Virus record (IMG/VR): IMGVR_UViG_3300032282_004167
Length of the DNA: 20,000 nucleotides
Direction: 5' to 3' (one strand)
DNA from: an uncultured virus (IMG/VR IMGVR_UViG_3300032282_004167)
Lineage: Duplodnaviria > Heunggongvirae > Uroviricota > Caudoviricetes
Positions 1-18,229 of this stretch are shown here, piece by piece. A model generated the notes under the pieces. That model was not told where the DNA came from and searched no databases. It saw only the letters and a list, made by a program, of their open reading frames with translations. Every line of letters begins with the position of its first letter. The stretch's first letter is position 1. The position numbers and the translations under genes are program-made.

Positions 1-108
1 TTCATGAAGTATGCTCGTCTTAATCCCGACGTTGCTGCTCTTGCATTTGGTGATTTCGACGCTGATATTGAAAATTTATTGAATGAGACTTCAAAAGAAA
101 ACCTATGA
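1..108 (+). CDS. 3' end of upstream gene (partial, acidic C-terminus)
   Basis: Frame 1 is open from base 1 (FMKYARLNPDVAALAFGDFDADIENLLNETSKENL*). Its TGA overlaps the ATG at 105 (ATGA coupling). Confidence 0.7.
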   Translation, partial: FMKYARLNPDVAALAFGDFDADIENLLNETSKENL

Positions 109-1823: not shown

Positions 1824-1865
1824 TTATTCTACGATAATATCTCAGCTCAAAGGAATTGTGCATTT

Positions 1866-3116: not shown

Positions 3117-3187
3117 TTAAGGGCACTGACTATAGAGATCGTATCTCTCATAGAAAGAGCCCATTAGAAGAGCTTTCTTTGTGCCCT
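3107..3187 (+). promoter_or_regulatory. Putative -1 programmed ribosomal frameshift signal (slippery heptamer plus stimulatory RNA structure)
   Basis: C_CCA_AAA (3107-3113) is in the JAB frame directly before TAA. After a 6-nt spacer, AGGGCAC (3120-3126) pairs with GTGCCCT (3181-3187) and encloses AGAGAT-CGT-ATCTCT. The -1 frame is open through 3727. Confidence 0.65.
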
Positions 3188-3727
3188 AAATGTTCTGCAT
3201 GGGCGCCAGTAAATACTCACTGGGATTTCTGGACTTGTGACGAATGTTACGAGGCTATGGATGAATGGTGGCTTGTTGATTCATTGTTTTGGCATGATGA
3301 TACTCATACCTATATTGATACTTCTATTGATTATCTCTATACCCGTCATTATCCAGAAGCCATTACCGCAGATGATTGTATGATTTGTGATTCTAACTTC
3401 ATGATTCAGAATTGTTCTTGTGGTACCAATCCATATGATTGGACTGACTTTTTAAGAATCACTAGAGCTAAGAATATTAACAATTCTGACATTTATGCTT
3501 TAGATTTTGAGAAAAGCATGGATTGTTATCTTTGTGAGTATTTCAATACTTACCAATGTGTTCCAATAAGAAACTGGTTCAGGAATCTTGTAGAAACTCA
3601 TACTCTTCCTCAAGAAAAAATTTCTTTCTGCAAATACTTTACTCCTGATCCATCAGCAGATGATGTATTAATTGAAACGGTTTTGAATCAACTTGGAAAA
3701 GAAGAAATATTGTTAAAGGGAATATGA
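3179..3727 (+). CDS. Cys-rich multi-CxxC protein, probably expressed as the -1 frameshift extension of JAB (frame open from 3089)
   Basis: CPKC, CDEC, CMIC, CSC, CYLC. Only a TTG start with a weak SD. Stop overlaps the E1 start. Confidence 0.7.
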   Translation: MCPKCSAWAPVNTHWDFWTCDECYEAMDEWWLVDSLFWHDDTHTYIDTSIDYLYTRHYPEAITADDCMICDSNFMIQNCSCGTNPYDWTDFLRITRAKNINNSDIYALDFEKSMDCYLCEYFNTYQCVPIRNWFRNLVETHTLPQEKISFCKYFTPDPSADDVLIETVLNQLGKEEILLKGI

Positions 3728-4500
3728 TAACAATGAAACCTGTCAGGTGCGTAATCGTCGGCTGTGGCGGTATTGGTTCTTGGCTTGCAGCTGGTCTCGT
3801 AAGAGCAATGCAGTTCCAAGCTCCCATGTCTCAACTTGTCCTCGTTGATGGCGACAACTTTGAACCAAAGAACATGGAACGTCAAAGCTTTGTTACTTAC
3901 GGCAATAAAGCTAATGCTCTTCGTTCTGACCTTCAACCAATTGCCCCTCAAACCTTTGTCATTTCTCGTCCAGCTTGGATCGTTCCAGAAGGTATGGCAG
4001 TTGTTTCCGAGGATGATACTACTACGAAAATGACTGCTCATCAGTTGCTTCAAGAAAATGATTATGTTTTTGTTGCAGTAGACAATTTTGCTGCTCGTAA
4101 ACTATTGTTTGATGCAGCTGCTGATTATAACAATATTGACATTTTTACTGGCGGTAATGATGACAGACTTTTCGGTTCTGTTTATCATTATCAACGTCGT
4201 GATGGTCAAGATATTACCTTACCCCCTGCTCACTTTCATGATGAGTTTGTTAATCCACCTGATAAGAATCCAGGTGAACTTTCTTGTCAAGAGCGTGCAG
4301 CATTAGATGGCGGCACTCAATTGCTTGCTGTCAATATGGGTGTTGCAGCGTGGCTTTTATCGAAAGCTTGTTATGTCATCTTTGGCACCGATGAAGAAAG
4401 CAAAGCATCTGTAGAATTGTCAGAAATTTATTTCGACATGGAAGCAGGGCTTTCTCAGCCATATGATCGTCGTCCAGTTAATGTCCCAATCACCGTTTAA
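3724..4500 (+). CDS. ThiF/MoeB-family E1-like Ubl-activating enzyme
   Basis: VIVGCGGIGSW nucleotide-binding loop, DGDNFEPKNMERQ, AVDNFAARK, GGN, and ELSCQE...Q...N with putative catalytic Cys188. No CxxC Zn pairs, as in PRTRC-type ThiF. Confidence 0.92.
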   Translation: MITMKPVRCVIVGCGGIGSWLAAGLVRAMQFQAPMSQLVLVDGDNFEPKNMERQSFVTYGNKANALRSDLQPIAPQTFVISRPAWIVPEGMAVVSEDDTTTKMTAHQLLQENDYVFVAVDNFAARKLLFDAAADYNNIDIFTGGNDDRLFGSVYHYQRRDGQDITLPPAHFHDEFVNPPDKNPGELSCQERAALDGGTQLLAVNMGVAAWLLSKACYVIFGTDEESKASVELSEIYFDMEAGLSQPYDRRPVNVPITV

Positions 4501-4518
4501 CAAACGAGGTACAATACA

Positions 4519-4773
4519 ATGAATGAATCAGTAAGCCAGCCGTCCCCATCAGCAAGTTCTTCTTCGGGCAAGGTCACCATCAAGTATGGTGTTCACGTTC
4601 GTGAAGTCGAAGCTGGTACTACCATTGGCGATCTTCGCAAGAAGTATGGTCAAATCCTTCGCATCCCCGAAGATGCTCGCGGCTACAGCGGCACCAATCA
4701 GATGAGCGATGACCAAGTCCTCACCGACGGTACCACCGTTGAGTTTGTCCGCAAGACCGGCGAAAAGGGCTGA
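4519..4773 (+). CDS. Ubiquitin-like beta-grasp protein with free C-terminal Gly (GEKG)
   Basis: VTIKYG...GTTIGDLRKK...LRIP...DDQVLTDGTTVEFVRKTGEKG fits the beta-grasp pattern. GxKG end resembles Prok_Ub/PRTRC-C. GAGGT SD upstream; directly follows E1. Confidence 0.85.
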   Translation: MNESVSQPSPSASSSSGKVTIKYGVHVREVEAGTTIGDLRKKYGQILRIPEDARGYSGTNQMSDDQVLTDGTTVEFVRKTGEKG

Positions 4774-4788
4774 CCCTACTCTAATTCC

Positions 4789-4884
4789 CTCTGTGGCGCT
4801 ACTTAGATGTCTATATACTATACATACTACTGGTCGAGTATGTATAGTATAAGCTAACTTTTAAGTAGCGCCACAGAGTTTTTT
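4789..4884 (+). terminator. Long two-stem hairpin followed by T6 (intrinsic terminator or processing site)
   Basis: Perfect 17-bp IR 4789-4805/4862-4878 encloses a perfect 15-bp IR 4814-4828/4837-4851; TTTTTT at 4879-4884. Confidence 0.75.
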
Positions 4885-4900
4885 GTGGTAGCATATCGTT

Positions 4901-5419
4901 ATGACTTTATCTTATACTTTACAACAAATATCTGAAGTTTTAGAGCAAGTTCTTGATCCTGAGTTATCTACTCTTTTGACTCGTATTAATTCAAAAGATG
5001 ATTCTCCGTATGTTACTCTTCCTAACTCTAACGACATTGATCTTCCTCCCACTGATGTCGCTAGACTTATAGCTACTACTTCTAACGAGTATGGCAAAGC
5101 GTGTAGAATTGCTGGTATTGCTCGCGCTCAGTATAAAATTGCTGTTGGTCAATACAAGTTGAAGTATAGAATATCTTCTGGTTCTGGCAAAAATGCTGCT
5201 GAACGAGAATCAAAGGCCGCTGAAGCTTCGCGTTCAGAATTTGAACGCATGGTTCTTCTTGAAGCTGTCGTAGAACTTGCTGAATCTATTGAGTCATCTA
5301 CTCGCATCGCTTCCGAATCTTCTCGTAGAATGCTTCTTGGAGCTGACCAATACTCCAAAGCTTATTCTCGAACAGAATCTTTTGAAACTTCTACTGACCG
5401 TAGTTATTCTACTTTCTGA
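4901..5419 (+). CDS. Hypothetical helical/coiled-coil protein
   Basis: 172-aa ORF, Ala/Glu/Arg-rich helices (KNAAERESKAAEAS); genome-typical codon usage. Confidence 0.8.
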   Translation: MTLSYTLQQISEVLEQVLDPELSTLLTRINSKDDSPYVTLPNSNDIDLPPTDVARLIATTSNEYGKACRIAGIARAQYKIAVGQYKLKYRISSGSGKNAAERESKAAEASRSEFERMVLLEAVVELAESIESSTRIASESSRRMLLGADQYSKAYSRTESFETSTDRSYSTF

Positions 5420-5421
5420 TC

Positions 5422-5664
5422 ATGACCCCTTTTCTTGTCGTTTTATATGCCTCCAATCAGTGTGGACATGTGTTCTCTAGCCAGCATCTTGCCATAGGCG
5501 AGCACTATCCTCCTTCTGTTCTTTATTTATGTCCAGCATGTGAAAAAACTCATCTTTTTAATGAACGTAGATCTTTTCATATAACTACTTCGTCAATGGA
5601 TGTCAATTTTAAGAATTATTGTTTAGCTCAGAATATTTCTGATATAAACGTTGAGATTCTGTAA
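5422..5664 (+). CDS. Small Zn-ribbon-like protein
   Basis: CGH...CPAC; starts 2 nt after the previous stop. Confidence 0.65.
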   Translation: MTPFLVVLYASNQCGHVFSSQHLAIGEHYPPSVLYLCPACEKTHLFNERRSFHITTSSMDVNFKNYCLAQNISDINVEIL

Positions 5665-5700
5665 AAAAAGAATAAGTACTATACAATATCTGGAGTTCTA

Positions 5701-7302
5701 ATGTCACTGCTTTCTGCGATTCAGAATCGCACTCCTTTGGTTTGGGTCATGACTACTGAGCCTGAGCGATTGATCGCTAACATTCCTGCCATTTCTGACG
5801 ATAGAATCATTTATATCTTTGACCCTATTAAAGGTCTTCTTCAGTGGTCTTCCGATGACAATGAGTGGAAAATTGTACTAGTAAATATTCCCTCTCTTGA
5901 TCCAGATGAAGAAGATGATCAGGTTACTTTAAGTGATTATCCCTCTGCTCTTAGTTATGTTCTTTCCAGCGTTAATTCTATATTTATTGCCCGCAATGCT
6001 CATAAAGATATAGATAATTTCTTGTCTTTGTATTCTTCTATTTACGGCCAGTATCGTAACGCTTTTTGGACTAATAACCTTGATTCTCTTCCTGTCCAGA
6101 TTATTGCTCTTTCCGCAGGAGATTCTCCTCCCGCAGAAATTGCCAATATGTGCACTAAAGTTTCTTATGGAACTCCTTCAGACAATGAGTTTGCTTCTAT
6201 AGTCTCTCACATCAATGAACATCATGAACATGACATCTTAAAGGGTCAAGATCTCCAAAAGATTGTGAATGCTTCTCGCGGAATGACTGAATTTGAAGCC
6301 ATTGAAACTTATTTCCAGTCTATTCGTACTAATCAAGTCATTGACCAAGAGATGATCAGCAAGCTCAAGCTTGATCGTCTCAAGCGAGAGACTATTCTGG
6401 ACATCATTCGCCCTACCGTTGACCTTGCTAACGTTGGTGGTCTTGATAATGCTAAGCATCTGATCAGTCAAGCTGATTGGATCTGGCGCAATCCCAACGA
6501 TGCCAATGAGTTTGGTCTTACTGCGCTGCGTCGTGTCTTGTTCCTTGGCTTACCCGGCACTGGCAAGTCATATATCTGTGAGGCAGCAGCAAAAACTCTT
6601 GGCCTTGATCTTGCTCGTACAGGCATCGGTAAAATCATGAATAAGTTTGTCGGTCAGTCAGAGCAGAATATGCTTGCAACTTTCCAACACATTGCTGCAC
6701 TTGCTCCTATTGCAGTGTGGATCGATGAGCTTGGTCGTGACCTCAGTGGTGGTGGCTCCTCTGACACAGTCGATGGTGGCACTACAAGTCGTGTCCATGC
6801 TGCTTTTCTTACTGGTCTTCAGGAGCTTCCTGACAATGTGTTTTTATTTGCTGCAGCTAATGACATTGATTCTTTGGCTCCCGAAATGCTTCGTGCTGAT
6901 CGTTTTGATAAGATCATGTTCGTCGGTTTCCCAAGTTTTAAAGAACGACGTGAAATTTTCCGTCTTAATCTTTCTCCTCAGGTTCAATATGACCTTGACC
7001 ATTTAGCTGAAGCCACTCCCTGTTTCACCGGTGCAGAAATAAAGAGCCTTGTTAAAGAAGTTCGATTTAAAGTTTCTCCTTCAGAGAAGCGTCATATCAA
7101 TACTGATGATATAATTAAAGCCGTTCCTCTTCAGAAGAATCGTTTATGGCTCCGTCATCGTCATACTGTCACATCTATGTATTCTCGCGCTCTTGTAGAA
7201 CATGAATGGGCTTCTACGGATCAGTTCAATGATGCTGCATTAATTGTCAAGGGCAAAGAGCCTTCAAAGATTCAAGTCAAGACTTCTTTCAATTTAAAGT
7301 GA
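5701..7302 (+). CDS. AAA+ ATPase, Ycf46-like (degenerate N-terminal domain plus active classical AAA module)
   Basis: VGGLDNAK, Walker A GLPGTGKS, NKFVGQSE pore loop, Walker B VWIDE, SRH AANDIDSLAPEMLRADRFD, FTGAEI. GGAG SD upstream. Confidence 0.9.
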   Translation: MSLLSAIQNRTPLVWVMTTEPERLIANIPAISDDRIIYIFDPIKGLLQWSSDDNEWKIVLVNIPSLDPDEEDDQVTLSDYPSALSYVLSSVNSIFIARNAHKDIDNFLSLYSSIYGQYRNAFWTNNLDSLPVQIIALSAGDSPPAEIANMCTKVSYGTPSDNEFASIVSHINEHHEHDILKGQDLQKIVNASRGMTEFEAIETYFQSIRTNQVIDQEMISKLKLDRLKRETILDIIRPTVDLANVGGLDNAKHLISQADWIWRNPNDANEFGLTALRRVLFLGLPGTGKSYICEAAAKTLGLDLARTGIGKIMNKFVGQSEQNMLATFQHIAALAPIAVWIDELGRDLSGGGSSDTVDGGTTSRVHAAFLTGLQELPDNVFLFAAANDIDSLAPEMLRADRFDKIMFVGFPSFKERREIFRLNLSPQVQYDLDHLAEATPCFTGAEIKSLVKEVRFKVSPSEKRHINTDDIIKAVPLQKNRLWLRHRHTVTSMYSRALVEHEWASTDQFNDAALIVKGKEPSKIQVKTSFNLK

Positions 7303-7309
7303 GATAATT

Positions 7310-7882
7310 ATGTATACAGAACAAACTGAATCAGACATTGTCTCTGCTGACAATACAAACACTTCTCAATCTACTGAAGTAGAAACTCTTTACAAGAAGT
7401 GGCATAAAACTGGTTTTATCTCTATCTCTTACTGGAGTAAAGCTGATAGAATCGTTATTGAAATTGGTTCTCTTGAATCTTCTGGATCTCTCAAGTCTGC
7501 TACTAAGTGTTTCGTCCCTGCTCCTCAGTTTCTTGCTTATTTGCGCTCTGAGATAAACGACACTCTTGATGTCATTTATCCTGGCTTTAATGCTAATGGT
7601 CATTCTTTTTACGGTGGCGGAGATACTCCTACTGGAGTAGTTGCTCGTGTCTTTAAGATTACCCATTGGATGGGCAAGAATCAGGCTGTAGACACTACTT
7701 CTCGCGCTTTTAAGTGTGGTCATTTTAAGGGTAAACGAACTGATCAAGGTGCTGTTACTCCTGATTACTCTCAGGTCATATCTGCAAACAGTATTAAAAT
7801 GACACTTGCTGATATCGCTGAGATTTTTGAAATACTCTACAAGCAAATTCTTGTAGCTGCACTTGTTCCTGTGATACAATAG
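7310..7882 (+). CDS. Hypothetical protein (alpha/beta, possibly nucleic-acid binding)
   Basis: 190-aa ORF tightly packed after the AAA gene; no recognised motif. Confidence 0.75.
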   Translation: MYTEQTESDIVSADNTNTSQSTEVETLYKKWHKTGFISISYWSKADRIVIEIGSLESSGSLKSATKCFVPAPQFLAYLRSEINDTLDVIYPGFNANGHSFYGGGDTPTGVVARVFKITHWMGKNQAVDTTSRAFKCGHFKGKRTDQGAVTPDYSQVISANSIKMTLADIAEIFEILYKQILVAALVPVIQ

Positions 7883-7886
7883 TATT

Positions 7887-8294
7887 ATGACAGAAGAAAA
7901 TATACAAACTGCTTTAGTTACTGATTTTCAACTTGCTCAAACTGTTCAAGACCTTAAGGCTTGGACTGTTTCAGTGTTAGAAACTGTACATAACAATACT
8001 ATTGAGATCAACAATAAACAAGACAGTTTATTTGAACAGTTTGAGAGACAACTTGCTGCTCTCACCTCTGCCTATGTTGAAATGGCTTCGATGCTTGAGT
8101 CTATAGTCTCTTCTATCGTTAATAGATCTGATGAGGACAGAGATATATTTTTCGATAATCTACGTGAATCAAGAAAGACAATGATTGACGTTCTCAAACA
8201 CGCATCACAACAGGCTGACCGCAATGCAGATAGATTCGTCCCTTATAATCCAGACTCTTCTCAAGAACCTTCAGGTGATACAGTCTCCGAGTAA
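7887..8294 (+). CDS. Hypothetical coiled-coil protein
   Basis: 135-aa helical ORF in operon. Confidence 0.75.
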   Translation: MTEENIQTALVTDFQLAQTVQDLKAWTVSVLETVHNNTIEINNKQDSLFEQFERQLAALTSAYVEMASMLESIVSSIVNRSDEDRDIFFDNLRESRKTMIDVLKHASQQADRNADRFVPYNPDSSQEPSGDTVSE

Positions 8295-8493
8295 TGGAGA
8301 TTGTATCATCGTTGCTTCTTCTGAGGATCAAAGATTATTTGTATCTTCTCCCCATATATTGTATCTTGTCTATCCTATCGTAAAAAAGATGTATCCGACT
8401 TGTTCTTCTCTTCATATCGTATCTGGTCCATCTTATGATTTTCTTTTACAAGGAAAAGCAGAATTAATTTCTATCAAATCTAGGAAAACATGA
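8224..8493 (+). CDS. Hypothetical protein (start likely ATG 8224)
   Basis: Fills the gap to 8490 with ATGA coupling; overlaps the previous gene by 71 nt. Confidence 0.55.
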   Translation: MQIDSSLIIQTLLKNLQVIQSPSNGDCIIVASSEDQRLFVSSPHILYLVYPIVKKMYPTCSSLHIVSGPSYDFLLQGKAELISIKSRKT

Positions 8494-9302
8494 TGTCTCT
8501 TGATGTTATTAATACCTATCTCGCTTTGCTTGCCAGTGAAGAAGTTTTAGATCCTCAAAATGTATTAAATCATTCTTTGATAGAAACTTCTGAACTCTTA
8601 ACTTCGTTTGCTGAATGTAATATTTTTACTCGTGTTTCACACTATTATAATACTTTGTTTCAGTATAGTTTTGAGAATGTTACTTTTGCTATTTCTTCTT
8701 CTCTTAATCATTCTCAAGCACAATCTATTAATGCTTCTTTAACAGAACTCTGTACTTCTGAGAATATATCTCTTTCTGAATGCAAAATATTTCCTGGCAA
8801 TAATTCTCAGATTATGAATGTCATTTATGAACATTTAGCTAATGACTATATGTATGATCGTCCTAATGATACTTGTAACTCTGGTTTCAATACCATCGCT
8901 TTGAGTTACTCACAACTTGTTTTCAAGCATTTGTTTTACATGGGCCTTCTCTATCCTATTGGTCAAGATTACAAGTCTGCCACTGCTTATATTCTTTTTC
9001 CTTGGGATAAGATTTTTCCTGAAGGTTCTTCTGCTAAGTCAGCATGGTACAGTTCTCAAACTGATACCTTAAGTTTCTATCAAACTTTTATCCCTTCTCC
9101 TTTGTCTACTGTAACAAGAGATGAGATTTGTACTTCTCTATATGCTTTCATGCATTATCTTGTTATTTATAATCAAAACGCTGCAAAAAAAATCTTTAAT
9201 CATATTTCTTCTGCTTTTGATAAGATTACTCAATTTACTCAAAAAGCAAAAAATATTGCTCCTTCTGTAGTTGAAACTTACAGTCACTATACTTGGTCTT
9301 AG
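8490..9302 (+). CDS. Hypothetical protein
   Basis: 270-aa ORF, ATGA-coupled. Confidence 0.75.
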   Translation: MMSLDVINTYLALLASEEVLDPQNVLNHSLIETSELLTSFAECNIFTRVSHYYNTLFQYSFENVTFAISSSLNHSQAQSINASLTELCTSENISLSECKIFPGNNSQIMNVIYEHLANDYMYDRPNDTCNSGFNTIALSYSQLVFKHLFYMGLLYPIGQDYKSATAYILFPWDKIFPEGSSAKSAWYSSQTDTLSFYQTFIPSPLSTVTRDEICTSLYAFMHYLVIYNQNAAKKIFNHISSAFDKITQFTQKAKNIAPSVVETYSHYTWS

Positions 9303-9318
9303 AGAAAGATGCTATCAA

Positions 9319-10122
9319 ATGTCTGATTCAGAAACCTCTTTTGAGTACCCTGATTATGAGTCTGATTGTGATGTCGATCCCGATCCCGATGTCATTAATG
9401 ATTCTCTTCTTGCCTTGTTCGACAAATTAAATATTTCAGCTATGATTAACTCCCCAGTGTCTGAGGAAACAAATATGAAGACTAATATTAATTATGATGG
9501 TTCTCTTTCTCAGGTTGGAAGAGCTTATTACGATGAAGACCTTCATTGTTTAAACGTTTATCTTCCTGTTTACATCAAAGATTACAAGTTTAATGTTTCT
9601 TACGTCCTTGATTTAATTAACAGTGGATATAAAGAATTTGATGTCTTCAATATAGCTAATAGTTATCAAACTGATGAGACTAAAATTCCTTCTTGTCAGC
9701 ATTTTGTTCCTTCCACTCAACTCGTTGCACTCGGATCTAAACTTCCTTCTAAGTGGAAATATACAGAAGCCCCAATTGCTTGTTCCTGTGTTCACCCCAA
9801 AAACAATGCAACCACTTCAAAAATTAATTGTTCGTTTATGCCAATGCTTATCAACTGCTCCCTCTATCAACCTTTTGAGTGGACTGATATTAAGCATGCG
9901 AAGAATAATGACATCATTGTCGTGACCGTTCAGCAGTCTTTTTCTGTCCCACGTGCCCCTAAGTATAAGGTAATCTTTGGTTCAGATACAAAAGAATTTC
10001 TTTCTCTTCAAGAAACTGATACTTATTTCGATGAGTGTGTCGCACTTTCTGGTCAAGACCTTACTGTAGTTTCTGTTCTTCCTTCTGTAGAGAATCCTTA
10101 TATTGAAACAGTCCTAAAATAA
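9319..10122 (+). CDS. Hypothetical protein with acidic N-terminus and Cys/His cluster
   Basis: ATG 9319 avoids overlap with the upstream gene; CQH, CSCVH and two further Cys. Confidence 0.7.
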   Translation: MSDSETSFEYPDYESDCDVDPDPDVINDSLLALFDKLNISAMINSPVSEETNMKTNINYDGSLSQVGRAYYDEDLHCLNVYLPVYIKDYKFNVSYVLDLINSGYKEFDVFNIANSYQTDETKIPSCQHFVPSTQLVALGSKLPSKWKYTEAPIACSCVHPKNNATTSKINCSFMPMLINCSLYQPFEWTDIKHAKNNDIIVVTVQQSFSVPRAPKYKVIFGSDTKEFLSLQETDTYFDECVALSGQDLTVVSVLPSVENPYIETVLK

Positions 10123-10123
10123 A

Positions 10124-11053
10124 ATGACAAAAAGTACATTGATATTTTCTGATACAGAAGAAGCTTTTTATTCTGCTTCTGACAAGAATGTATCTCTTGA
10201 TTTTAATTCTGTCTCTAAACAGTTTTCTTCTTCCGCTCCTGATCTTGGTCTTCTTCCTCCGGTCGTAAGGTATATATCCCCTTGGCTCATTGATCATTCT
10301 AATAATGATAATGGTCGCCATTATGCTTTTGCTATCGTTGAGCAACCTCCTTCTATGAAGACTATTTCTTTTCATTCTACTAGTCATGATGATTGTGACC
10401 CTGATGATGAGTGTGAACATTGTTTCAATGAGGATTATCCTTTAGCAAAAACTATAAATATTCCTGTTCCATGGAATTATTGGGTTTTTCATTTTACTCC
10501 AAGTTCTGATAATCATCCAATATTTTCTGGTCATGTAAATCTTTTTTTTGCTCATTCTCAAGCTCATGATTTAGACAATCCTTTATATCCTCCTTTTGTT
10601 CCAAATATATCTCCTGTTAGCTGGTATAAGAACGATATCATAGACAGTATTCTTTCTTCTTGTACTGTTTGTATTGGTTCTGATTTTTGGGCTACTAAAA
10701 TCAATAATTTTTCTTTTGCTAATTATCTCAAATTTCCTCTTGGTATAGACGATATATCTTTTGATCAGCTTTTTAGAGATTACGTTTCTTTCTTTTGGTC
10801 AACTACTTTCAATTCTGACTATTCAGATCATTTGTATAATTTTCTTGAATTAATTGTTGATTCCAAAAATGATATCCCTAATGATGTTCATGGTTGGTTT
10901 CCCTTTCTTGCACAGATGTCTATCGATGAAGTTCTTACTCGTTTAAAGAAACATTCTACTTCTATGTACTCTTTGGGCGATGTAATTAATGCTTTTGATT
11001 CTTGCATTCCTCCTATTAATTTACGTGCTATTTTTGCTAAGCTATCGATTTGA
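10124..11053 (+). CDS. Prok-E2_D-like protein, paralog 2
   Basis: GLLPPVVRYIS, VEQPP, IPVPW, PLYPPFVPNI...CTVCIG, FWSTTFNSD. Acidic DDCDPDDECEHC insertion. Confidence 0.65.
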   Translation: MTKSTLIFSDTEEAFYSASDKNVSLDFNSVSKQFSSSAPDLGLLPPVVRYISPWLIDHSNNDNGRHYAFAIVEQPPSMKTISFHSTSHDDCDPDDECEHCFNEDYPLAKTINIPVPWNYWVFHFTPSSDNHPIFSGHVNLFFAHSQAHDLDNPLYPPFVPNISPVSWYKNDIIDSILSSCTVCIGSDFWATKINNFSFANYLKFPLGIDDISFDQLFRDYVSFFWSTTFNSDYSDHLYNFLELIVDSKNDIPNDVHGWFPFLAQMSIDEVLTRLKKHSTSMYSLGDVINAFDSCIPPINLRAIFAKLSI

Positions 11054-11074
11054 ATAGAGAATAAAGGATTTTAA

Positions 11075-11923
11075 ATGTTTCTTAAAATTGATTACGATAA
11101 CGAAGAAGAAGTCGCTGATTTTTCTTTATCAACTGATACTTCTCTTTACAAATCAAATTTTTCTTCGATTGCTTCTTGTGCTTCTGATGAATGGAGCAAT
11201 TATTATTCTTCCAGGAATAATTTGATTCCACTCAATTGTCTTCCTCCGGCCGTAAGATATATTTCTTCTGATCGTAGACTTATTGTCTGGGAGCGTCCTC
11301 CAGCTTATAAGTCAATTAACTATACTCAAGAGTATCAAGATGCTCTTTCTCCTGATCAGCAAAGCACCGTGTTTCATAGGCTTCCTGTTCCTTGGCAGGT
11401 GTATGTAATCCACCTTTCTCCTGAAGCCAGATTAGCTAACGTTTTTATGTTTTTTAGGAATAGTCAGATAAACAGCATGGTTGATGATCAGTTATGTTTT
11501 GCTACTCTTCCAAATTTTTATGAAACAGGAAGACTCTGTCAAGCTGCCTTTGATACCATTCAATCATATGACAGAGATGTTCTTTCTTCTATCAATGCCG
11601 CTTATGAAATGATTTGGAATTCTGGCTTTAATAAAGATACTTTATTGGCTTATAATTCTCTTTTTAATACTCCTGGTTTGAAAAAAAATAATCCTCTTGT
11701 TTCTTCCTTTAGCACTACTAGAACTCCTTATTATACCTTTGATAAGTGGACTAAGTATCGAATTGAGGACGTAGTTACCTGGACATGGCCTACTGCTTAC
11801 AACTCTCTTCATCATTTCATTGAGACTAGAGCGTATGCTCAGGCTATTGAACCTGATTCTCATAACTTCATGGTTAATATGTTATTTGCCGCTCAAGATG
11901 CTCCACAAAAAACAAAACAATAG
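11075..11923 (+). CDS. Prok-E2_D-like protein, paralog 3
   Basis: LPPAVRYIS, WERPP, LPVPWQVY, LCFATLPNFYETGRLC (Cys155), IWNSGFNKD: closest to the PRTRC-B PN.Y..G.IC...FW.S.F pattern. AAGGA SD. Confidence 0.75.
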   Translation: MFLKIDYDNEEEVADFSLSTDTSLYKSNFSSIASCASDEWSNYYSSRNNLIPLNCLPPAVRYISSDRRLIVWERPPAYKSINYTQEYQDALSPDQQSTVFHRLPVPWQVYVIHLSPEARLANVFMFFRNSQINSMVDDQLCFATLPNFYETGRLCQAAFDTIQSYDRDVLSSINAAYEMIWNSGFNKDTLLAYNSLFNTPGLKKNNPLVSSFSTTRTPYYTFDKWTKYRIEDVVTWTWPTAYNSLHHFIETRAYAQAIEPDSHNFMVNMLFAAQDAPQKTKQ

Positions 11924-11924
11924 G

Positions 11925-11970
11925 TTGAAAATTTGCTAGTTATCAGCTATCATATAATAGCTATATAACT
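11925..11970 (+). promoter_or_regulatory. Sigma70-like promoter overlapped by an imperfect palindrome (candidate operator)
   Basis: TTGAAA (11925-30), 17 bp, TATCAT (11948-53). Dyad AGTTAT-C-AGCTAT-n6-ATAGCT-AT-ATAACT at 11938-11970. Confidence 0.5.
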
Positions 11971-11996
11971 TTATAAACTCAGTAAGGAGTTTTACA

Positions 11997-12329
11997 ATGA
12001 CTGATTCAAAAGCACCAAACTTAACCGTACCTCCCAGATTTACTCGTTCTGAAGTAGCAAAAATCTTAAACTGTTCTTCTTTGACTATCTATAATAGAGA
12101 AAAATCTGGTAAGTATCCTCAACCATCTAGAACTAATTCTAATTATCGTTTATATTCTTTGAATGATCTTTTTACTCTTCAAAAGATCACTTATGGACAG
12201 ATTTATTTATCTTCCATATTTTCCTTGCTTTGGGACAAAGGCTATACTGATGTAAGTTCCTTGGAGAAGTACCTCAACGATGCATTAGATAAGCACCAAC
12301 AGGGTGTTAGCGAAGCTATCAATGAGTAG
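11997..12329 (+). CDS. MerR-family HTH DNA-binding protein
   Basis: FTRSEVAKILNCSSLTIYNREKSGKYPQPSRTNSNYRLYSLNDL matches the MerR HTH/wing; AAGGAG SD. Confidence 0.85.
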   Translation: MTDSKAPNLTVPPRFTRSEVAKILNCSSLTIYNREKSGKYPQPSRTNSNYRLYSLNDLFTLQKITYGQIYLSSIFSLLWDKGYTDVSSLEKYLNDALDKHQQGVSEAINE

Positions 12330-12570
12330 CACTGAACAACCCGAAGAACAATTTATTACTCCTGAAGAAGAACCTTTCTCCAGCGACGCTCAGAATGCTA
12401 TCTTTAATTTTTTGTTTGTTTTAGTCGCTCAGTATAGCGAGTCTATGCCCTCTATTGATGCCATCAATAAGGCTTGTGACTGGCTCATATCTTTGGGCGA
12501 GTCAATTAAAAAACAAGCTAATGAGTTTGATTCTGATCTTCAACAGAAGTATAATTTGTTTACCAACTAA
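12322..12570 (+). CDS. Hypothetical protein
   Basis: ATG 12322 overlaps the MerR gene end; 82 aa. Confidence 0.65.
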   Translation: MSSTEQPEEQFITPEEEPFSSDAQNAIFNFLFVLVAQYSESMPSIDAINKACDWLISLGESIKKQANEFDSDLQQKYNLFTN

Positions 12571-12582
12571 TAAGGAGCTATT

Positions 12583-13014
12583 ATGATAACGAATACAAAT
12601 ATGGTCATCATACAAGGTGGATTAACAAAAGATCCTGAAGTGTATGAAGACAAAGTTGTCCATCTTTCAGTTGCTGTAGATAATTCTGGCAACGAAAAAG
12701 GCGTTAAGAATGCCCCTGGGTATTTTGACGTAAAGATTTGGATGACTCCCTCTAAGATGACTCCAGAAGTAACTACTGAAGCTCTTAAGACTGCTATTAA
12801 CGAAAAGACACTCAAGAAGGGTGCAAAAATTTCTGTTATTGGTCGTCTGATTCATGAGCGCTGGAAGGACGATACCGGTAAGCGCTCCTCCAGAGCTGTT
12901 ATCATGGCTGAGTCTTTTAACATTCTTTACTCAGGATCAAGAGCTACTACCCCTAAGGATGAAGATTCTTCTACTGTCTCCAATGAAGCAGTTACTTATA
13001 TAGACGAATTCTAG
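12583..13014 (+). CDS. ssb: Single-stranded DNA-binding protein
   Basis: NMVIIQGGLTKDPE, LSVAVD, KKGAKISVIGRLIHERWKDDTGKRSS (OB-fold SSB pattern), acidic tail ending YIDEF; AAGGAG SD. Confidence 0.9.
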   Translation: MITNTNMVIIQGGLTKDPEVYEDKVVHLSVAVDNSGNEKGVKNAPGYFDVKIWMTPSKMTPEVTTEALKTAINEKTLKKGAKISVIGRLIHERWKDDTGKRSSRAVIMAESFNILYSGSRATTPKDEDSSTVSNEAVTYIDEF

Positions 13015-13024
13015 TCTTTACTCT

Positions 13025-13762
13025 ATGGATACAGATCAGCAATTCGATCCTGTTGATGTATCTCGTTTAATTGCTGAAGCTCTCAATGAAAGAACTGTGT
13101 TGCCCCTTTCTTTTATTGAGACTTCAGTATTTGAACACCTTTCTCACATGCTTACTCAGTATATGAATGCTGCTGATGTTTCTTATGTAATATCTGAATT
13201 ACGTTCTTACTTATTTCAAGGTTTTACAAAATTTTCTCCAAAGCAACTTCATGATATTATTAAGCATTGTAGAAAGTGTGACAACGTAGAACATCCTCCT
13301 ATCCTTCCTTCTTGGAACTGTAGTGATCCAGATCTAATGATCTTGGCTGAAAATCCAAGTTCTATAGGTCAGTATTCTCAGATTCTCGTTGACTCATTAA
13401 AAGACGCTGGATTTTCTTCTCAACGTTGCATACTAACTTATGTAACTCGTTGTAAAGCTTATAAGCCAGATAATTTGATTGTTTCTAATTGTCTTCCTTA
13501 TATTCATACCGAAATTGCTGCTCTTAATCCAAAGCTTATTCTTCCTCTTGGCTTGACTGCTTATACTGCTATAACTGGCGATAGTTCTGTTAAGCTTTCT
13601 GATATACGTGGAAGCATTCGATGGGTTGGTCCTTATGCTATTCTCCCTGAAGCAAGTCTTGCTTGGGGTGCTCATGCCAAAAATAAAGACACAACACAAA
13701 AATCCTATATGCATGCGTCTTTAACGAAAGCTCACCACTTTCTGTATGGAGGAAATAATTAA
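13025..13762 (+). CDS. Uracil-DNA glycosylase family 4-like protein with degenerate catalytic motifs
   Basis: CRKC...LMILAENPS...YVTRCK...CLPYIHTEIAALNPKLILPLGLTA: four Fe-S Cys and the family-4 layout, plus an ~70-aa N-terminal extension. Confidence 0.8.
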   Translation: MDTDQQFDPVDVSRLIAEALNERTVLPLSFIETSVFEHLSHMLTQYMNAADVSYVISELRSYLFQGFTKFSPKQLHDIIKHCRKCDNVEHPPILPSWNCSDPDLMILAENPSSIGQYSQILVDSLKDAGFSSQRCILTYVTRCKAYKPDNLIVSNCLPYIHTEIAALNPKLILPLGLTAYTAITGDSSVKLSDIRGSIRWVGPYAILPEASLAWGAHAKNKDTTQKSYMHASLTKAHHFLYGGNN

Positions 13763-14130
13763 TGAGTAACTCTGATCAAAATGTTTACTTAGGATATAAT
13801 GAACTTTATTTCAACGAGATAGTTGATAAGGATCTTAAGGGTTCAATTTCTTCTTCAGAGCGTTCTTATCTTGTTTCTAATCCAGCTATTTGGAAGTCTC
13901 AACTTGTATGCCTGAAAAGAAGAACTGAAATGCAGTTCACTTCCTCTAAAGCTAGATCATTTTCTTTGTATAGAGAATTTTCTCAAGGTGCCTTGCCCTA
14001 TCCTGAGTATGTTGATAAACTCAATAAAGAGAAAGAGTGGCGATGCAATGCTGCTCGATTTCTTCAGCAGATAGAAATTCGTATTCAAGAAACCAAGGCT
14101 CTTAATGTCAACCATAATTCAACGGATTAA
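13762..14130 (+). CDS. Hypothetical helical protein
   Basis: GGAGG SD; TAATG coupling. Confidence 0.75.
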   Translation: MSNSDQNVYLGYNELYFNEIVDKDLKGSISSSERSYLVSNPAIWKSQLVCLKRRTEMQFTSSKARSFSLYREFSQGALPYPEYVDKLNKEKEWRCNAARFLQQIEIRIQETKALNVNHNSTD

Positions 14131-14590
14131 AAATTCCACTCCGACGCATTTAGGTAACGAGGCGTTTTCAATGCTTCGTTCTGTTTATGCAGAAAATAAG
14201 TATGTAATTTTTACTTCTTCAGTTTATGGTTATGAGCAAATTGATAAGATAATTGAAATTTATTTAGATGTCTTTTCAGATTTAGAAATTTCTCCTGGTG
14301 AGTTTGTAAAAGCTTATCATCCTGCTTACTTTGCTACCTCTTTTCTTCCTGATACTCCTAATTATATTTTTTATCTTCTCTCTTATAGCAATGGTCATAT
14401 TGTTTATGTTGAGGACTCTAACGATCCTAATTCTTACGAATTGATGGTTCTTATAGAGCGTTCAATATTAGATGACTTAGGGATTGAATATACTGATATA
14501 AGAGTTGATTATATCAATGCCGCAATGTTGATAGCTCAAAACGAATATCTTAAACTTCAATCTCAAGACGATCCAGGTGAGTCTTCATGA
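14105..14590 (+). CDS. Hypothetical protein
   Basis: 161-aa ORF in operon. Confidence 0.7.
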   Translation: MSTIIQRIKNSTPTHLGNEAFSMLRSVYAENKYVIFTSSVYGYEQIDKIIEIYLDVFSDLEISPGEFVKAYHPAYFATSFLPDTPNYIFYLLSYSNGHIVYVEDSNDPNSYELMVLIERSILDDLGIEYTDIRVDYINAAMLIAQNEYLKLQSQDDPGESS

Positions 14591-14796
14591 AGGCTGTTTA
14601 TGTTCCTTTAATACCAAATGTTTCTTCTTTTGAAGAATCTCTTGATTCTGTAAGATCTAAGTATCCTTTTATTGTAGGCGAAGTTGTTTTTGCTTATGAT
14701 CAAAAAGATACAATAGCCTGGTTGCGTATTGATTCTGTCACTGATGTCTCGATACTATTTACTGTTATAAATTCATTTTTTGATGGCGAGCTATGA
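14587..14796 (+). CDS. Hypothetical protein
   Basis: ATGA-coupled at both ends. Confidence 0.65.
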   Translation: MKAVYVPLIPNVSSFEESLDSVRSKYPFIVGEVVFAYDQKDTIAWLRIDSVTDVSILFTVINSFFDGEL

Positions 14797-15161
14797 AAGA
14801 TAGGGACAATATGTCAGAAGAACAAACTCCAATGACAGATGATCAAGTTAAACGTTACGCTACTTTTGATATGATCACTAATTCAGCTATTTATGCGATG
14901 GCTAATGATGACAAGATTGAGTACGAAAAAATCGTTCTCGATATCCTTAATACTGTAATGCAGTCCCAAGAAATAACTGTTTCTTATATTTGCTATCTTA
15001 TAGCTATATATGGTCAGACCCTTAAGATGTTTACTTCTTCAATGAATACTGATGTTACTGACCTTCTTACCGATGCATCGTTGTTTGACGTTCTTGCCGC
15101 AGAAGATCCTAATCATTTTCATGAAACTGAACGAGATTTAAAAGATAATAATGGGTCGTAA
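14793..15161 (+). CDS. Hypothetical acidic protein
   Basis: 122 aa, ATGA-coupled. Confidence 0.7.
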   Translation: MKDRDNMSEEQTPMTDDQVKRYATFDMITNSAIYAMANDDKIEYEKIVLDILNTVMQSQEITVSYICYLIAIYGQTLKMFTSSMNTDVTDLLTDASLFDVLAAEDPNHFHETERDLKDNNGS

Positions 15162-15360
15162 GAATAAACAAAATCGTCATATTCGTCGTAAATCTTTTTC
15201 TCGTTATTATCTAGATTCCTCTCTTGATACTTCAATAAAATCTGTGGCTATTAGTCATAGTTATTCTACTACTGTTAAATCAGAAACAATCTCTAACATA
15301 GCTATATCAGTGTTCGGTTCTCTTTATTATTGCGTGGGTGATGAATGTCGTACTACATAA
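15151..15360 (+). CDS. Small basic hypothetical protein
   Basis: MGRKNKQNRHIRRK; fills the gap between neighbours. Confidence 0.5.
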   Translation: MGRKNKQNRHIRRKSFSRYYLDSSLDTSIKSVAISHSYSTTVKSETISNIAISVFGSLYYCVGDECRTT

Positions 15361-15830
15361 GGATTGATGAAAAAGAAGATCTTGATTGGTTGTCCAATCT
15401 AATTTCTAATACTTTAAACAGGGGCCCTAACGATCCTTTTCTTCAGGCTCATTACGAAAGAATTATTGCTTGGAGCAATGCATTATCTAATCTTGTTCCC
15501 TCTAAATCTGCTTTAAGTTCTACTGATATTCCAGACCAACTTTTATCTGAATCAGACGCCAATATCCTTAGGCAAAAATCTCTTCCTCAGCCAAAGCGTA
15601 GAGGTCGACCTCCCGGCAAGAAAACTGGACAGAAAAAGACTCAAGCTAAACGTAAGCCAAAAGAAGCTGAAGATCCTTATGCTTGTGCTGACCATGTCAA
15701 TTATTCTGGTTCTCGTGCTCCTAGAACTGATTGCATCAAATGCTGGTCTATTTATAAGTCTCTTAATCCCATGACTTATGCTCAAGCTAGGTCCAGATTT
15801 AATCTTAAGCAGAAGAAGAAAGTCGCTTAA
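15345..15830 (+). CDS. AT-hook plus C-x2-H...C-x2-C Zn-finger DNA-binding protein
   Basis: PKRRGRPPGKK AT-hook core, Lys-rich linker, CADH...CIKCW. Confidence 0.7.
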   Translation: MSYYIRIDEKEDLDWLSNLISNTLNRGPNDPFLQAHYERIIAWSNALSNLVPSKSALSSTDIPDQLLSESDANILRQKSLPQPKRRGRPPGKKTGQKKTQAKRKPKEAEDPYACADHVNYSGSRAPRTDCIKCWSIYKSLNPMTYAQARSRFNLKQKKKVA

Positions 15831-15832
15831 AA

Positions 15833-16498
15833 ATGGATTATTATGTTGATCGTTTTTTGGCATATTGTCCTCAAGTCGATATGACACAAGATCAAATAAA
15901 CGACATAAAAGCCCATCATCCTTCACCAGACTCCTATGATGAGACAATCTCCACTGTAAGTTTTATTTCTTTTCAAAAGAATTTGATTACTTCTATTGTT
16001 AAGTCTTTTGCTATCCACCAAAATGGTTCGGAAGTTAAGAGCCATGCACCAGTGATAGACATTGATGTGCCATGCGAATTGCTTCCTTCTTCTCAGCTTG
16101 GTCATTACCATTTCTATATTCATAAACCTATTACTTGGACTAGTTATGTAGCCATTCTAAAGGCTTTTTTTGATGCTGGAATTGTAGAAGAAGGCTATTA
16201 TAAAGCTTGTTTATCTAAGGGATATAGCGCAGTTAGACTTCCTGGTGTTATTAAGCCTGGACTCAAGGTTACTAATTCTTCTATACTTAAAACAAATGCT
16301 ATATTGAGACGTAAGTTATATCTTGCTGAATGTGCTTATGCTAATAAAAGCGCCAAATTGAATCTTTTAATATCTAAGTTATTGGAGTTTGTAGATGGAA
16401 ATCAAATCTCAAAGTTACTTGAATCAGTTGGCGACGATACTAAAATCGCACCCGAACCTCTCCTTGTCGGAAGCAGTTCAGGAGGTTTGCAAGTATGA
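15833..16498 (+). CDS. AEP (primase-polymerase) superfamily-like protein
   Basis: HAPVIDID (DxD), PSSQLGHYHFYI (S..G.H) and downstream VRLP resemble AEP motifs; coiled-coil tail. Confidence 0.55.
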   Translation: MDYYVDRFLAYCPQVDMTQDQINDIKAHHPSPDSYDETISTVSFISFQKNLITSIVKSFAIHQNGSEVKSHAPVIDIDVPCELLPSSQLGHYHFYIHKPITWTSYVAILKAFFDAGIVEEGYYKACLSKGYSAVRLPGVIKPGLKVTNSSILKTNAILRRKLYLAECAYANKSAKLNLLISKLLEFVDGNQISKLLESVGDDTKIAPEPLLVGSSSGGLQV

Positions 16499-16650
16499 TT
16501 GGCAGGAGTATGAAATTGTTGTCGCTTCTTTAGCAGATAGGCTTCAAATATGCCCATCTCCCAGCGCTCCTAAATCTCTTTTTATGGCTAATATTTGGGA
16601 AACCAATAATTCTAGAGTTAAGTTAGTAGAGGCTATAGAGGCCTCCTAGC

Positions 16651-16809
16651 ATGGCTCAGTGTTGCGAATGCAACTGTGTAATAATCGGTTCTACAAAGTA
16701 TCTGAAAAGAACAAACAAAGGTATTTTGTGTACCCAGTGCCAATTTCAAATGAGACTTGAACAACTTGTCTCTCAAGATCAAGAGGTTGATTTAAACGAT
16801 GTCGAATGA
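16651..16809 (+). CDS. Small Zn-finger protein (52 aa; absent from the ORF track)
   Basis: MAQCCECNCVIIGSTKYLKRTNKGILCTQCQFQMRLEQLVSQDQEVDLNDVE; GAGG upstream. Confidence 0.65.
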   Translation: MAQCCECNCVIIGSTKYLKRTNKGILCTQCQFQMRLEQLVSQDQEVDLNDVE

Positions 16810-17035
16810 CACGCATGTAGCTAATGATATTGGTGTAATGGGCGTTTTATTGGATAACTTTCATCATCATATTTTATTAGATGTTCTTAAGCAGAATCTT
16901 GCTAATTCTGACAGTAATGTTCACATTGAACTAAGTCGTTTAAAGAATATTATTGAAGATGTTGATAACACTCTTTCGGTAATGCTAGGATATATTCCAG
17001 ATCCTTTTAATTCAGATTTGTATAATTCTATTTAA
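16799..17035 (+). CDS. Hypothetical protein
   Basis: GAGGT SD; 78 aa. Confidence 0.65.
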   Translation: MSNDTHVANDIGVMGVLLDNFHHHILLDVLKQNLANSDSNVHIELSRLKNIIEDVDNTLSVMLGYIPDPFNSDLYNSI

Positions 17036-17043
17036 TACTTCTA

Positions 17044-17116
17044 GCCTCCGTAGCTCAATGGATAGAGTATCTGGTTTCTACCCAGCTTGTTGGGGGTTCG
17101 AGTCCCTCCGGGGGTG
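17044..17116 (+). tRNA. tRNA-Arg (anticodon TCT)
   Basis: Acceptor GCCTCCG/CGGGGGT, D arm GCTC-AATGGATA-GAGT, anticodon arm CTGG-TTTCTAC-CCAG, T arm GGGGG-TTCGAGT-CCCTC. CCA not encoded. Confidence 0.93.
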
Positions 17117-17187
17117 CTAGCATTAAGATCATACTGTGATATGATTATGCACCTACAATTTACATTTATTCTAATAAGGAAATTGAC

Positions 17188-17340
17188 ATGACAAACACAA
17201 TGATTCTTGACTCCACTCCAACTGCAGCTCACCCAGCTGCAACAATAATAGATGATTACTTAAAGATGCTTCGTGCTGACTTAGTCGCTAAAGAGGAAGT
17301 CATTAATCTACTTTTGGACATTCGTCAGACTGTTTCTTGA
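17188..17340 (+). CDS. Small hypothetical protein (50 aa; absent from the ORF track)
   Basis: AAGGA SD; MTNTMILDSTPTAAHPAATIIDDYLKMLRADLVAKEEVINLLLDIRQTVS; stop 1 nt before the next ATG. Confidence 0.65.
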   Translation: MTNTMILDSTPTAAHPAATIIDDYLKMLRADLVAKEEVINLLLDIRQTVS

Positions 17341-17341
17341 T

Positions 17342-17617
17342 ATGCCTTCTTACTCAAAAGTAGATGCTTCTTTCAGCATTTATATATCAAATCCCCCCAA
17401 TGCATCTCCTACTGTGAAAGATGTAAGAGACTGGTTGTCTCTTATCGATCAATTTAATATTTCTGATGATTATCCTCTTACTGACGCTTCTTTGTCTATT
17501 GATGTTTTTTCCCAGACAGTAGAACCAGTCTGTTGTGGCGAGTGCTCACCTAACTTAAATTCTATTGATGCTTTAATTGTTACTCATCAATGTACTCATC
17601 CCTATAGTGGTAGTTGA
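17342..17617 (+). CDS. Hypothetical protein with C-terminal Cys/His cluster
   Basis: CCGEC...HQC. Confidence 0.65.
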   Translation: MPSYSKVDASFSIYISNPPNASPTVKDVRDWLSLIDQFNISDDYPLTDASLSIDVFSQTVEPVCCGECSPNLNSIDALIVTHQCTHPYSGS

Positions 17618-17623
17618 CATTTA

Positions 17624-18229
17624 ATGCATTATCTTGCCATCGCACTAGTTCCTCCCCCCAAAAAAACCAATGATATTAATGCAATTACTCAATTTATTGA
17701 TTTAATAATGGAACCTTATTCCGTTTATTTTGAACATGATTGTATCAATACTGATAAAGATTTTGATGATAATGAGGAATGCGACACTTGTTCTGACGCA
17801 TTTTTTGATTGGTATGAAATTGGTGGTAGGTGGAGTGGTATCTTAACTGGTTATGATCCTCAGAAAGATCCTACCAATTTATCTCCATGCTCTTTTTGTG
17901 CTTCTTTGGGCTATCGCGCATCCAATCTTAATTATGATTCTTCTGTCAATGCTGTTTTAATTCCATGCTTTTGTGTTGAAACTCTTCGTCCTGGTCTTAT
18001 TCAGGCTTCTAGGCTTTTATACCACGGCGACATAGTTACCTTGGGTTACTGGAAAAAAATATCTAAAACTCAAGAAACTTATCCATGTTATTTAGTCACT
18101 TACGAAAATCACTTGTATAGGATTGATGACTTTATCTCTAATTCATCTAACATAAAGACTGAATTAGACGATATATTAACGAATTATTCCGACGATTTGC
18201 TTGTAGCAATCATAGACTGCCATATGTGA
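17624..18229 (+). CDS. Phage-type hypothetical protein with DWYEIGGRWSG motif
   Basis: FDWYEIGGRWSG and C-terminal IIDCHM, a pattern I recognise from phage hypotheticals; CSFC/CFC insert. Confidence 0.75.
   Translation: MHYLAIALVPPPKKTNDINAITQFIDLIMEPYSVYFEHDCINTDKDFDDNEECDTCSDAFFDWYEIGGRWSGILTGYDPQKDPTNLSPCSFCASLGYRASNLNYDSSVNAVLIPCFCVETLRPGLIQASRLLYHGDIVTLGYWKKISKTQETYPCYLVTYENHLYRIDDFISNSSNIKTELDDILTNYSDDLLVAIIDCHM

Follow-up and report, generated by a model that had tools for sequence, protein, structure and literature searches.

A phage-encoded ubiquitin-like gene module with three E2-like paralogs beside one E1-like enzyme

Gene content of the locus

The window (the whole stretch of 20,000 nucleotides analysed here, IMG/VR record IMGVR_UViG_3300032282_004167) is part of an uncultivated jumbo phage, and every long open reading frame in it lies on the + strand. 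Beginning from its 5' end, the window contains the following features:

105-1823, + strand: ORF105, E2-like protein of 572 aa, with a UBC-like domain in aa 1-260 at the N-terminus that includes N134 and C149
1866-3116, + strand: JAB/JAMM metallopeptidase of 416 aa (Pfam Prok-JAB, PF14464)
3179-3727, + strand: Cys-rich protein of 182 aa between the JAB and E1 genes
3724-4500, + strand: E1-like adenylating enzyme of the ThiF type, 258 aa (Pfam ThiF)
4519-4773, + strand: ubiquitin-like protein (Ubl) of 84 aa with the C-terminus ...GEKG
between the Ubl and AAA+ genes: two small ORFs, placed by gene order
5701-7302, + strand: AAA+ ATPase of 533 aa, a Cdc48/p97/VAT-like single ring (Pfam AAA and AAA_lid_3)
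7310-7882 (190 aa) and 7887-8294 (135 aa), + strand: two conserved proteins, always behind the AAA+ gene, with orthologs in syntenic loci
8490-9302 (270 aa) and 9271-10122 (283 aa), + strand: two ORFs upstream of A, from the ORF list
10124-11053, + strand: E2-like paralog A, the upstream tandem member, 309 aa, with N161 and C183
10253-10275, + strand: 23-nt stretch in A coding for LPPVVRYI, identical at 21 of 23 nt to 11240-11262 in B
11075-11923, + strand: E2-like paralog B, the downstream tandem member, 282 aa, with E73, P106-W107, N147, C155, W181, N186 and D188
downstream of B, + strand: MerR-like, SSB and UDG-family genes, from Pfam and PHROG annotation

Over most of positions 1-18000 both GC skew and AT skew are negative on the coding strand, so the sense strand is rich in pyrimidines, an unusual bias for coding DNA. 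At 8274-8310 a 16-pair stem forms a hairpin across the stop codon of ORF 7887-8294, with a T-rich tail behind it, and this could be a terminator dividing the Ubl/AAA block from the block that ends in A and B. A scan of 8000-12400 for promoters and terminators stayed at the level of shuffled sequence (17 promoters vs 17.5, 2 terminators vs 1.3).

The partner genes of a ubiquitin-like module

The product of 1866-3116 matches Prok-JAB at E 5.6e-7, scoring 29.9 bits against a cut-off of 25, and its translation shows HSHPNMSAYFSGTD, in the pattern H-S-H-x7-S-x2-D. Orthologs are found in the syntenic loci that extend to this position, and we regard the protein as a putative Ubl-processing and deconjugating enzyme. 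The 3179-3727 protein has no Pfam, PHROG or PADLOC match. The E1-like protein is matched by Pfam ThiF at E 9.1e-19 and, over its adenylation part, by the PADLOC E1-E2 models; it has the elements G-x-G-G-x-G and D-x-D...N..R-Q, and its C188, which sits in NPGE[LM]SCQER, is invariant in 16 orthologs. Searched against the PDB by sequence, it returned nothing at E <= 0.001.

The C-terminal G-x-K-G of the Ubl is invariant in 22/22 orthologs, 17 of which stop at the Gly. In the other five (loci L016, L017, L032, L036 and L040) the protein extends 1-2 aa past the Gly (NI, SL, SK, SF and L), which implies maturation by a peptidase in those five phages only. Taken together, these ends are what one would expect if the modifier can be matured by a peptidase. 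A profile of the Ubl family searched against the PDB has ubiquitin or ubiquitin variants in all of its best eight rows, with weak E-values (0.0027-0.038), and 3 of the 22 orthologs match Pfam ThiS (best 1.7e-6).

The AAA+ protein matches Pfam AAA (3.2e-22) together with AAA_lid_3, and phrog_8638 (5.4e-64); its closest solved relatives in the PDB are the D2 rings of Cdc48, p97 and VAT (Cdc48 D2, E 2.2e-46). Its gene is kept between the Ubl gene and the tandem E2-like genes in all syntenic loci, and a phage Ubl system tied to a Cdc48-like unfoldase would be notable by itself. The two proteins encoded behind it (7310-7882 and 7887-8294) have no family match above threshold.

A and B, a tandem pair

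An earlier note on this DNA had proposed that ORFs 10124 and 11075 are paralogs with a shared series of short motifs, and the alignments bear this out. BLASTP pairs A with B at 43.9 bits (E 1e-9; 38 of 139 residues identical, 27%), LPP[VA]VRYIS, E[QR]PP, PVPW and PN follow one another in the same order within that alignment, and the W..FN.D motif reads WSTTFNSD in A and WNSGFNKD in B. The nucleotide match that it listed, 21/23 between 10253-10275 and 11240-11262, was reproduced, and none of 200 dinucleotide-preserving shuffles gave at least two matches at <=3 mismatches. Because this stretch codes for LPPxVRYI, it mirrors the best-conserved peptide of the two proteins and is not a separate DNA element.

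The cysteines named in the note (C183 in A, C155 in B, C149 in ORF105) are placed correctly, and they are the ones conserved in their families. C155 is invariant in 18/18 close homologs of B and present in at least 90% of 72 A/B-family sequences, among which E73, P76, P106, W107, N147, W181, N186 and D188 are invariant columns. A word-indexed search found only three orthologs of A (P0002-P0004, 42-43% identity); all three keep the VCIG that holds C183. This site corresponds to [IV]C[MFWL]G in the upstream copies elsewhere among the phages, with which A also agrees in position and motifs. Relative to B, A carries an insert of ~14 aa between N161 and C183, in the active-site loop.

A phmmer search with B through 1.84 billion cluster representatives gave 418 matches at E <= 1e-3, 250 of them at E <= 1e-10, and all family matches that bear a source name are called hypothetical protein. 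ORFs 8490-9302 and 9271-10122 were considered as extra paralogs but found no support, their best E-values being 0.016 and 0.35 when a set of 7 sequences was searched with filters off. Neither has a family match; 9271-10122 has one homolog, at the same position in L035 (E 1.8e-8).

ORF105, a distant relative

ORF105 had been taken for a diverged copy of the same protein. Pairwise BLASTP does not recover this relationship (best E 0.065 and 0.095), and ORF105 is absent among the matches of the A/B profile HMM at E <= 10, whereas profile-profile comparison does recover it: hhalign, given 22 ORF105-type and 72 A/B-family sequences, aligns the two families over 227 columns at a probability of 97.6% and E 4.1e-12, pairing N134 with N147 and C149 with C155, and two unrelated profile pairs run as controls reached 2.2% and 0.06%. 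An HMM of the ORF105 N-domain finds B-type proteins of other phages at E 1.9e-10 to 5.9e-4 and A at E 0.0059. C149 is invariant in 22/22 ORF105 homologs.

The C-terminal half of ORF105 (aa ~320-572, window 1050-1823) is variable apart from at least five conserved CxxC pairs. Cysteines are also concentrated in the 3179-3727 ORF, which is found only in the window, L001 and L034, and in the tail of the JAB protein (window 2800-3000), which reads CCFC...CAAC. These three Cys-rich stretches gave no family match; they may be zinc ribbons, possibly acting as targeting or E3-like modules.

Predicted fold and active site

Predicted models of B (pLDDT 92) and of the ORF105 N-domain (pLDDT 91) are confident. 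Among 48,161 chains, a structure search placed only UBC-fold E2s in the top 24 rows for B and the top 19 for ORF105, at modest Z-scores (5.4-3.7) and with 6-16% identity to eukaryotic E2s within the structural alignments. Both models have the order helix, sheet, P-N, Cys, long helix, and both show the elements of the UBC alpha/beta fold, namely an N-terminal helix, an antiparallel sheet, a long crossover helix and C-terminal helices. The conserved Cys falls in the loop that leads from the last strand of the sheet into the crossover helix: C155 of B is flanked by strand 140-142 and helix 169-182, C149 of ORF105 by strand 107-116 and helix 161-172; C183 of A is assigned to this position through its homologous VCIG. 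The ESM Atlas model of A is poor (pLDDT 0.35) and its neighbours are uninformative; the UBC-like fold predicted for A rests on homology.

E2 enzymes have an HPN motif upstream of the catalytic Cys. In the phage proteins N147 (B), N161 (A) and N134 (ORF105) are invariant and each stands behind a Pro, with the His absent (LPN, VPN and LPN), and the Cys follows 8 (B), 15 (ORF105) or 22 (A) positions after the Asn. Each E2-like protein presents an Asn and, after it, an invariant Cys in the loop ahead of the crossover helix, which is the site of the HPN Asn and the catalytic Cys in E2 enzymes.

Other searches returned little. Foldseek found no PDB match at E <= 0.001 for the model of B or ORF105 and five BFVD matches at that threshold, all 'uncharacterized protein' or nameless; by sequence, ORF105 and B gave nothing in the PDB at E <= 1, and the SMI1 rows that appeared there for the A/B profile (E ~0.5) were taken as chance. 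A, B and ORF105 have no Pfam match at E <= 0.1, and PADLOC (2023) and PHROGs match none of them.

The only Pfam family touched by members of the A/B family is Prok-E2_D (PF14460), family D of the prokaryotic E2s in the E2/UBC superfamily, matched by 15/72 at E <= 0.01. Its gathering cut-off is 25 bits, which one of 28 tabulated A/B-family members exceeds (P0041, 26.3 bits) and below which five more fall, and 0/22 ORF105 homologs match it at E <= 0.05. A six-frame scan of five related phage records produced a sole PF14460 match in each, inside the tandem pair (11.6-14.9 bits), and the ESM Atlas neighbours of B carry no family name other than PF14460. With scores that, P0041 apart, lie under the Pfam cut-off, we treat the A/B family as a distant relative of Prok-E2_D and not a member, and the E2-like family as a whole would, from its sequence, be a distant branch of it. 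As to the claim that the three proteins are E2s, the UBC-like fold in the models of B and the ORF105 N-domain speaks for it, at modest Z-scores, as do the Prok-E2_D matches within the A/B family, though the window's own proteins have none; the three proteins are UBC-like, and their reading as E2s is supported but not proven.

Conservation of the module in related phages

A pattern scan of IMG/VR with the 18 close B homologs yielded 30 loci, ~19 of them distinct; a scan of viral contigs with A alone confirmed no locus. As far as their contigs extend, the 30 viral loci have the gene order ORF105-type, JAB, E1, Ubl, AAA+, two unknowns, upstream paralog, B-type, MerR, SSB, UDG. Of these loci, 27 of the 30 showed both tandem genes; the gaps are L024, whose upstream gene needs the HMMER filters off (51 bits), L025, which has the same coordinates, and L030, which ends at the contig end.

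Paralogs were also counted in complete genomes of relatives: G001-G004 each encode one ThiF E1, one Prok-JAB and three E2-likes (one ORF105-type and two A/B-type), along with a large terminase, these per-genome counts being taken from relatives and not from the window's own genome. The four genomes measure 202,697-231,459 bp, with CheckV completeness of 96-100% and terminal repeats in three. A further record, G005 (267,766 bp, 'linear', the record behind L019), has two non-identical copies of the module ~215.6 kb apart (~16-27 kb and ~231-243 kb), which may be an assembly artefact, two strains concatenated, and not a true duplication.

When the E1 alignment was used to scan species genomes, 10 MAG contigs were found. 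One of them, L031, carries the full set of three paralog types. In L035 the ORF105 type and an upstream copy are accompanied by a downstream copy that the contig end cuts short, and L034 has the ORF105 type and, at default filters, just one A/B-type gene. The more distant L036 and L040, with E1 proteins 33-37% identical, have a single E2-like gene (within 10 kb) right upstream of JAB-E1-Ubl; it keeps PN..C and W..FN.D, and the A/B profile (1.8e-12, 5e-11) outscores the ORF105 profile on it. Hosts read from the MAG titles (Cyclobacteriaceae, Ectothiorhodospiraceae, Limnohabitans, Saccharibacteria, Nomurabacteria, Deltaproteobacteria) were set aside, binning of phage contigs being unreliable. 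GenBank phage records searched by tblastn with A, B and E1 gave no match, hence no cultured relative or annotation is present there.

Age of the three lineages

A quick maximum-likelihood tree was built from 58 domain sequences, in which five ORF105-type rows cut by locus ends were exchanged for seven full-length database homologs trimmed to 290 residues. The ORF105 type is split off at 100% SH-aLRT; 18 of the 21 upstream copies cluster at 95%, and all 22 downstream copies fall on one side with a support of just 43. Long branches outside the main upstream clade lead to the window's A and to the upstream copies of L001 and L035. The ORF105 N-domain, A and B go back to ancient duplications within one UBC-like family. 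The three paralogs fall into separate groups, both by position and in the tree, so that the three lineages are older than the diversification of the phage clade; the tree does not fix the root and hence gives no order of the duplications.

A proposed pathway and its alternatives

The E2-likes share their module with one ThiF-type E1, one JAMM peptidase, one Gly-ended beta-grasp protein of 84 aa and a Cdc48-like AAA+ ATPase. We propose, with moderate confidence, that the E1 activates the Ubl and hands it to the conserved Cys of all three E2-likes, whose private extensions choose the targets. The E1 would adenylate the C-terminal Gly of the Ubl and take the Ubl onto Cys188, from which it would move to C149, C183 and C155 of the respective E2-likes. 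Each of these would select its own targets through its extensions (the putative Zn-ribbon array in ORF105, N- and C-terminal extensions in A and B), as the accessible text of PMC11601596 proposes for the E2s of Bil systems, which have no E3. The JAB would trim tailed Ubl precursors and undo conjugation, and the AAA+ may act on conjugates.

A larger picture, which we put forward tentatively and ourselves consider doubtful, is that of a self-contained, eukaryote-style pathway in a widespread clade of 200-230 kb uncultivated phages, comprising one Ubl, one E1, three specialised E2s with different host or phage targets (one of them fused to a zinc-ribbon array that serves as an in-built, E3-like targeting unit), a deubiquitinase of the JAMM type and a Cdc48-like unfoldase working on whatever has been tagged; this would amount to a viral 'ubiquitin-segregase' in bacteria, evolved independently of eukaryotes.

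Three other explanations were weighed. In the main one, A and B could form one unit in which an active E2 (B) is joined by a variant or accessory partner (A), as in Ubc13-Mms2/Uev1, with ORF105 as a second E2 and hence two E2 activities under one E1; we think this unlikely, though the arrangement of the pair is what it would lead one to expect. The two genes invariably lie side by side in one orientation, separated at 20 of 21 distinct junctions by a gap of <=21 nt or by an overlap (starts taken from the longest ORF), and the upstream copy evolves faster, with profile scores of 22-103 bits vs 175-278 bits downstream and with long branches; the insert in A's active-site loop would also suit an accessory role. 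UEVs, however, have no catalytic Cys, and a UEV-type unit would consist of one Cys-less partner bound to an active E2, whereas A keeps C183 and the Asn and Cys are kept in 20/21 upstream rows and in L024. The Cys is missing only from the upstream paralog of the window's nearest relative (L001:9222-9989, 255 aa), which lacks the Asp of W..FN.D as well and has an intact downstream partner; going by these residues it looks like a UEV-like dead copy, and to that extent it favours the paired reading.

The same Cys-less copy would fit the idea that one or more of the paralogs is a non-catalytic, E2-shaped adaptor or decoy that binds the Ubl, the E1 or a host Ubl defence of the Bil or CBASS Cap2 type, as would the strong divergence of the family from canonical E2s and the fact that phages are targets of host Ubl conjugation (accessible text of 10.1101/2023.09.04.556158). 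We nonetheless judge this improbable: the Asn, the Cys and W..FN.D are kept across hundreds of cluster representatives, which argues for retained chemistry rather than mere shape, and the cognate set of E1, Ubl and JAB is always close by. That the family is no E2 at all, being some other Cys-dependent enzyme or a structural protein with a UBC-resembling alpha/beta fold, unlinked to the Ubl genes 5-10 kb upstream, is very improbable given that two independent models have uniformly E2s in their top rows, that Pfam Prok-E2_D is matched, and that the gene upstream of JAB-E1-Ubl in L036 and L040 is matched better by the A/B than by the ORF105 profile, which ties the A/B type to the E2 position of the operon.

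Transfer of the Ubl from a single E1 to three E2-likes, the reading that we prefer, is directly testable in vitro because the components are small and the residues to mutate are clear (E1 C188; E2 C149, C183 and C155; Ubl G84).

Comparison with known systems

To our knowledge, accounts of bacterial Ubl conjugation to date (CBASS Cap2, Bil, Bub) present it as a host defence whose operons each have a single E2. Neighbourhoods of Ub-like, JAB, E1-like and E2-like genes are known in bacteria (Iyer et al. 2006, accessible text of PMC1779556), as are operons with Ubl, E1, E2 and JAB (PMC1779556 and the accessible text of PMC11601596). The phage module has the same complement of E2, JAB, E1 and Ubl as Bil-type operons, co-oriented in 105-4773 and in the same order wherever viral and MAG loci extend that far; with these operons and those of Iyer et al. 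2006 it shares a Gly-ended Ubl, the absence of a recognisable E3 (no RING, HECT or RBR E3 was detected in the phage system) and an E2 without the classical His. Unlike Bil operons, it lies on a lytic-type jumbo phage and not in a bacterial defence island, and it has three E2-like paralogs, a Cdc48-like AAA+ and two conserved unknowns. As the system is phage-encoded, a role in anti-phage defence is unlikely. The Bub (6E/DUF6527) operons are described in the accessible text of PMC11601596 as having Tyr and Ser oxyesters and a DUF6527 protease; in the phage system, by contrast, both the E1 and the E2-likes retain a Cys, and the peptidase is a JAB.

PADLOC matches in the phage module are confined to the E1 part of the CBASS E1-E2 models and to IetA-like AAA models, and PADLOC (2023) matches neither the JAB nor the Ubl. 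The A/B family has its conserved Cys in the same region as Prok-E2_D; compared with the latter, the phage proteins have an added N-terminal beta unit and C-terminal helices, and there are three paralogs in one phage.

In the main text of openly available full-text papers we found no paper on a phage E1/E2/JAB/Ubl module or on several E2s under one phage E1; in the accessible text of one jumbo-phage survey (PMC7824862) 'ubiquitin' occurs twice and 'JAB', 'E1-like', 'Ubl' and 'UBC' are absent. Within that body of literature, the phage-encoded setting, the conserved arrangement of three paralogs under one E1 and the linkage to a Cdc48-like ATPase are undescribed.

The interest of the locus lies in a whole Ubl machinery on the phage side, which complete jumbo-phage genomes share, which is tied to a Cdc48-like ATPase, and whose E2 triplication is older than the clade that carries it. 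There are eukaryotic parallels as well. As in E2-UEV pairs (Ubc13-Mms2), one phage lineage has a Cys-less copy beside an intact one, and as in the one-E1/many-E2 hierarchy, a single activating enzyme stands with several UBC-fold paralogs. The growth of ubiquitin signalling in eukaryotes probably rested on E2s diversifying under a single E1, and if the three E2-likes are active, the phage module would be a compact natural case of the same process and would suggest that phages tag host or viral proteins during infection or counter-defence.
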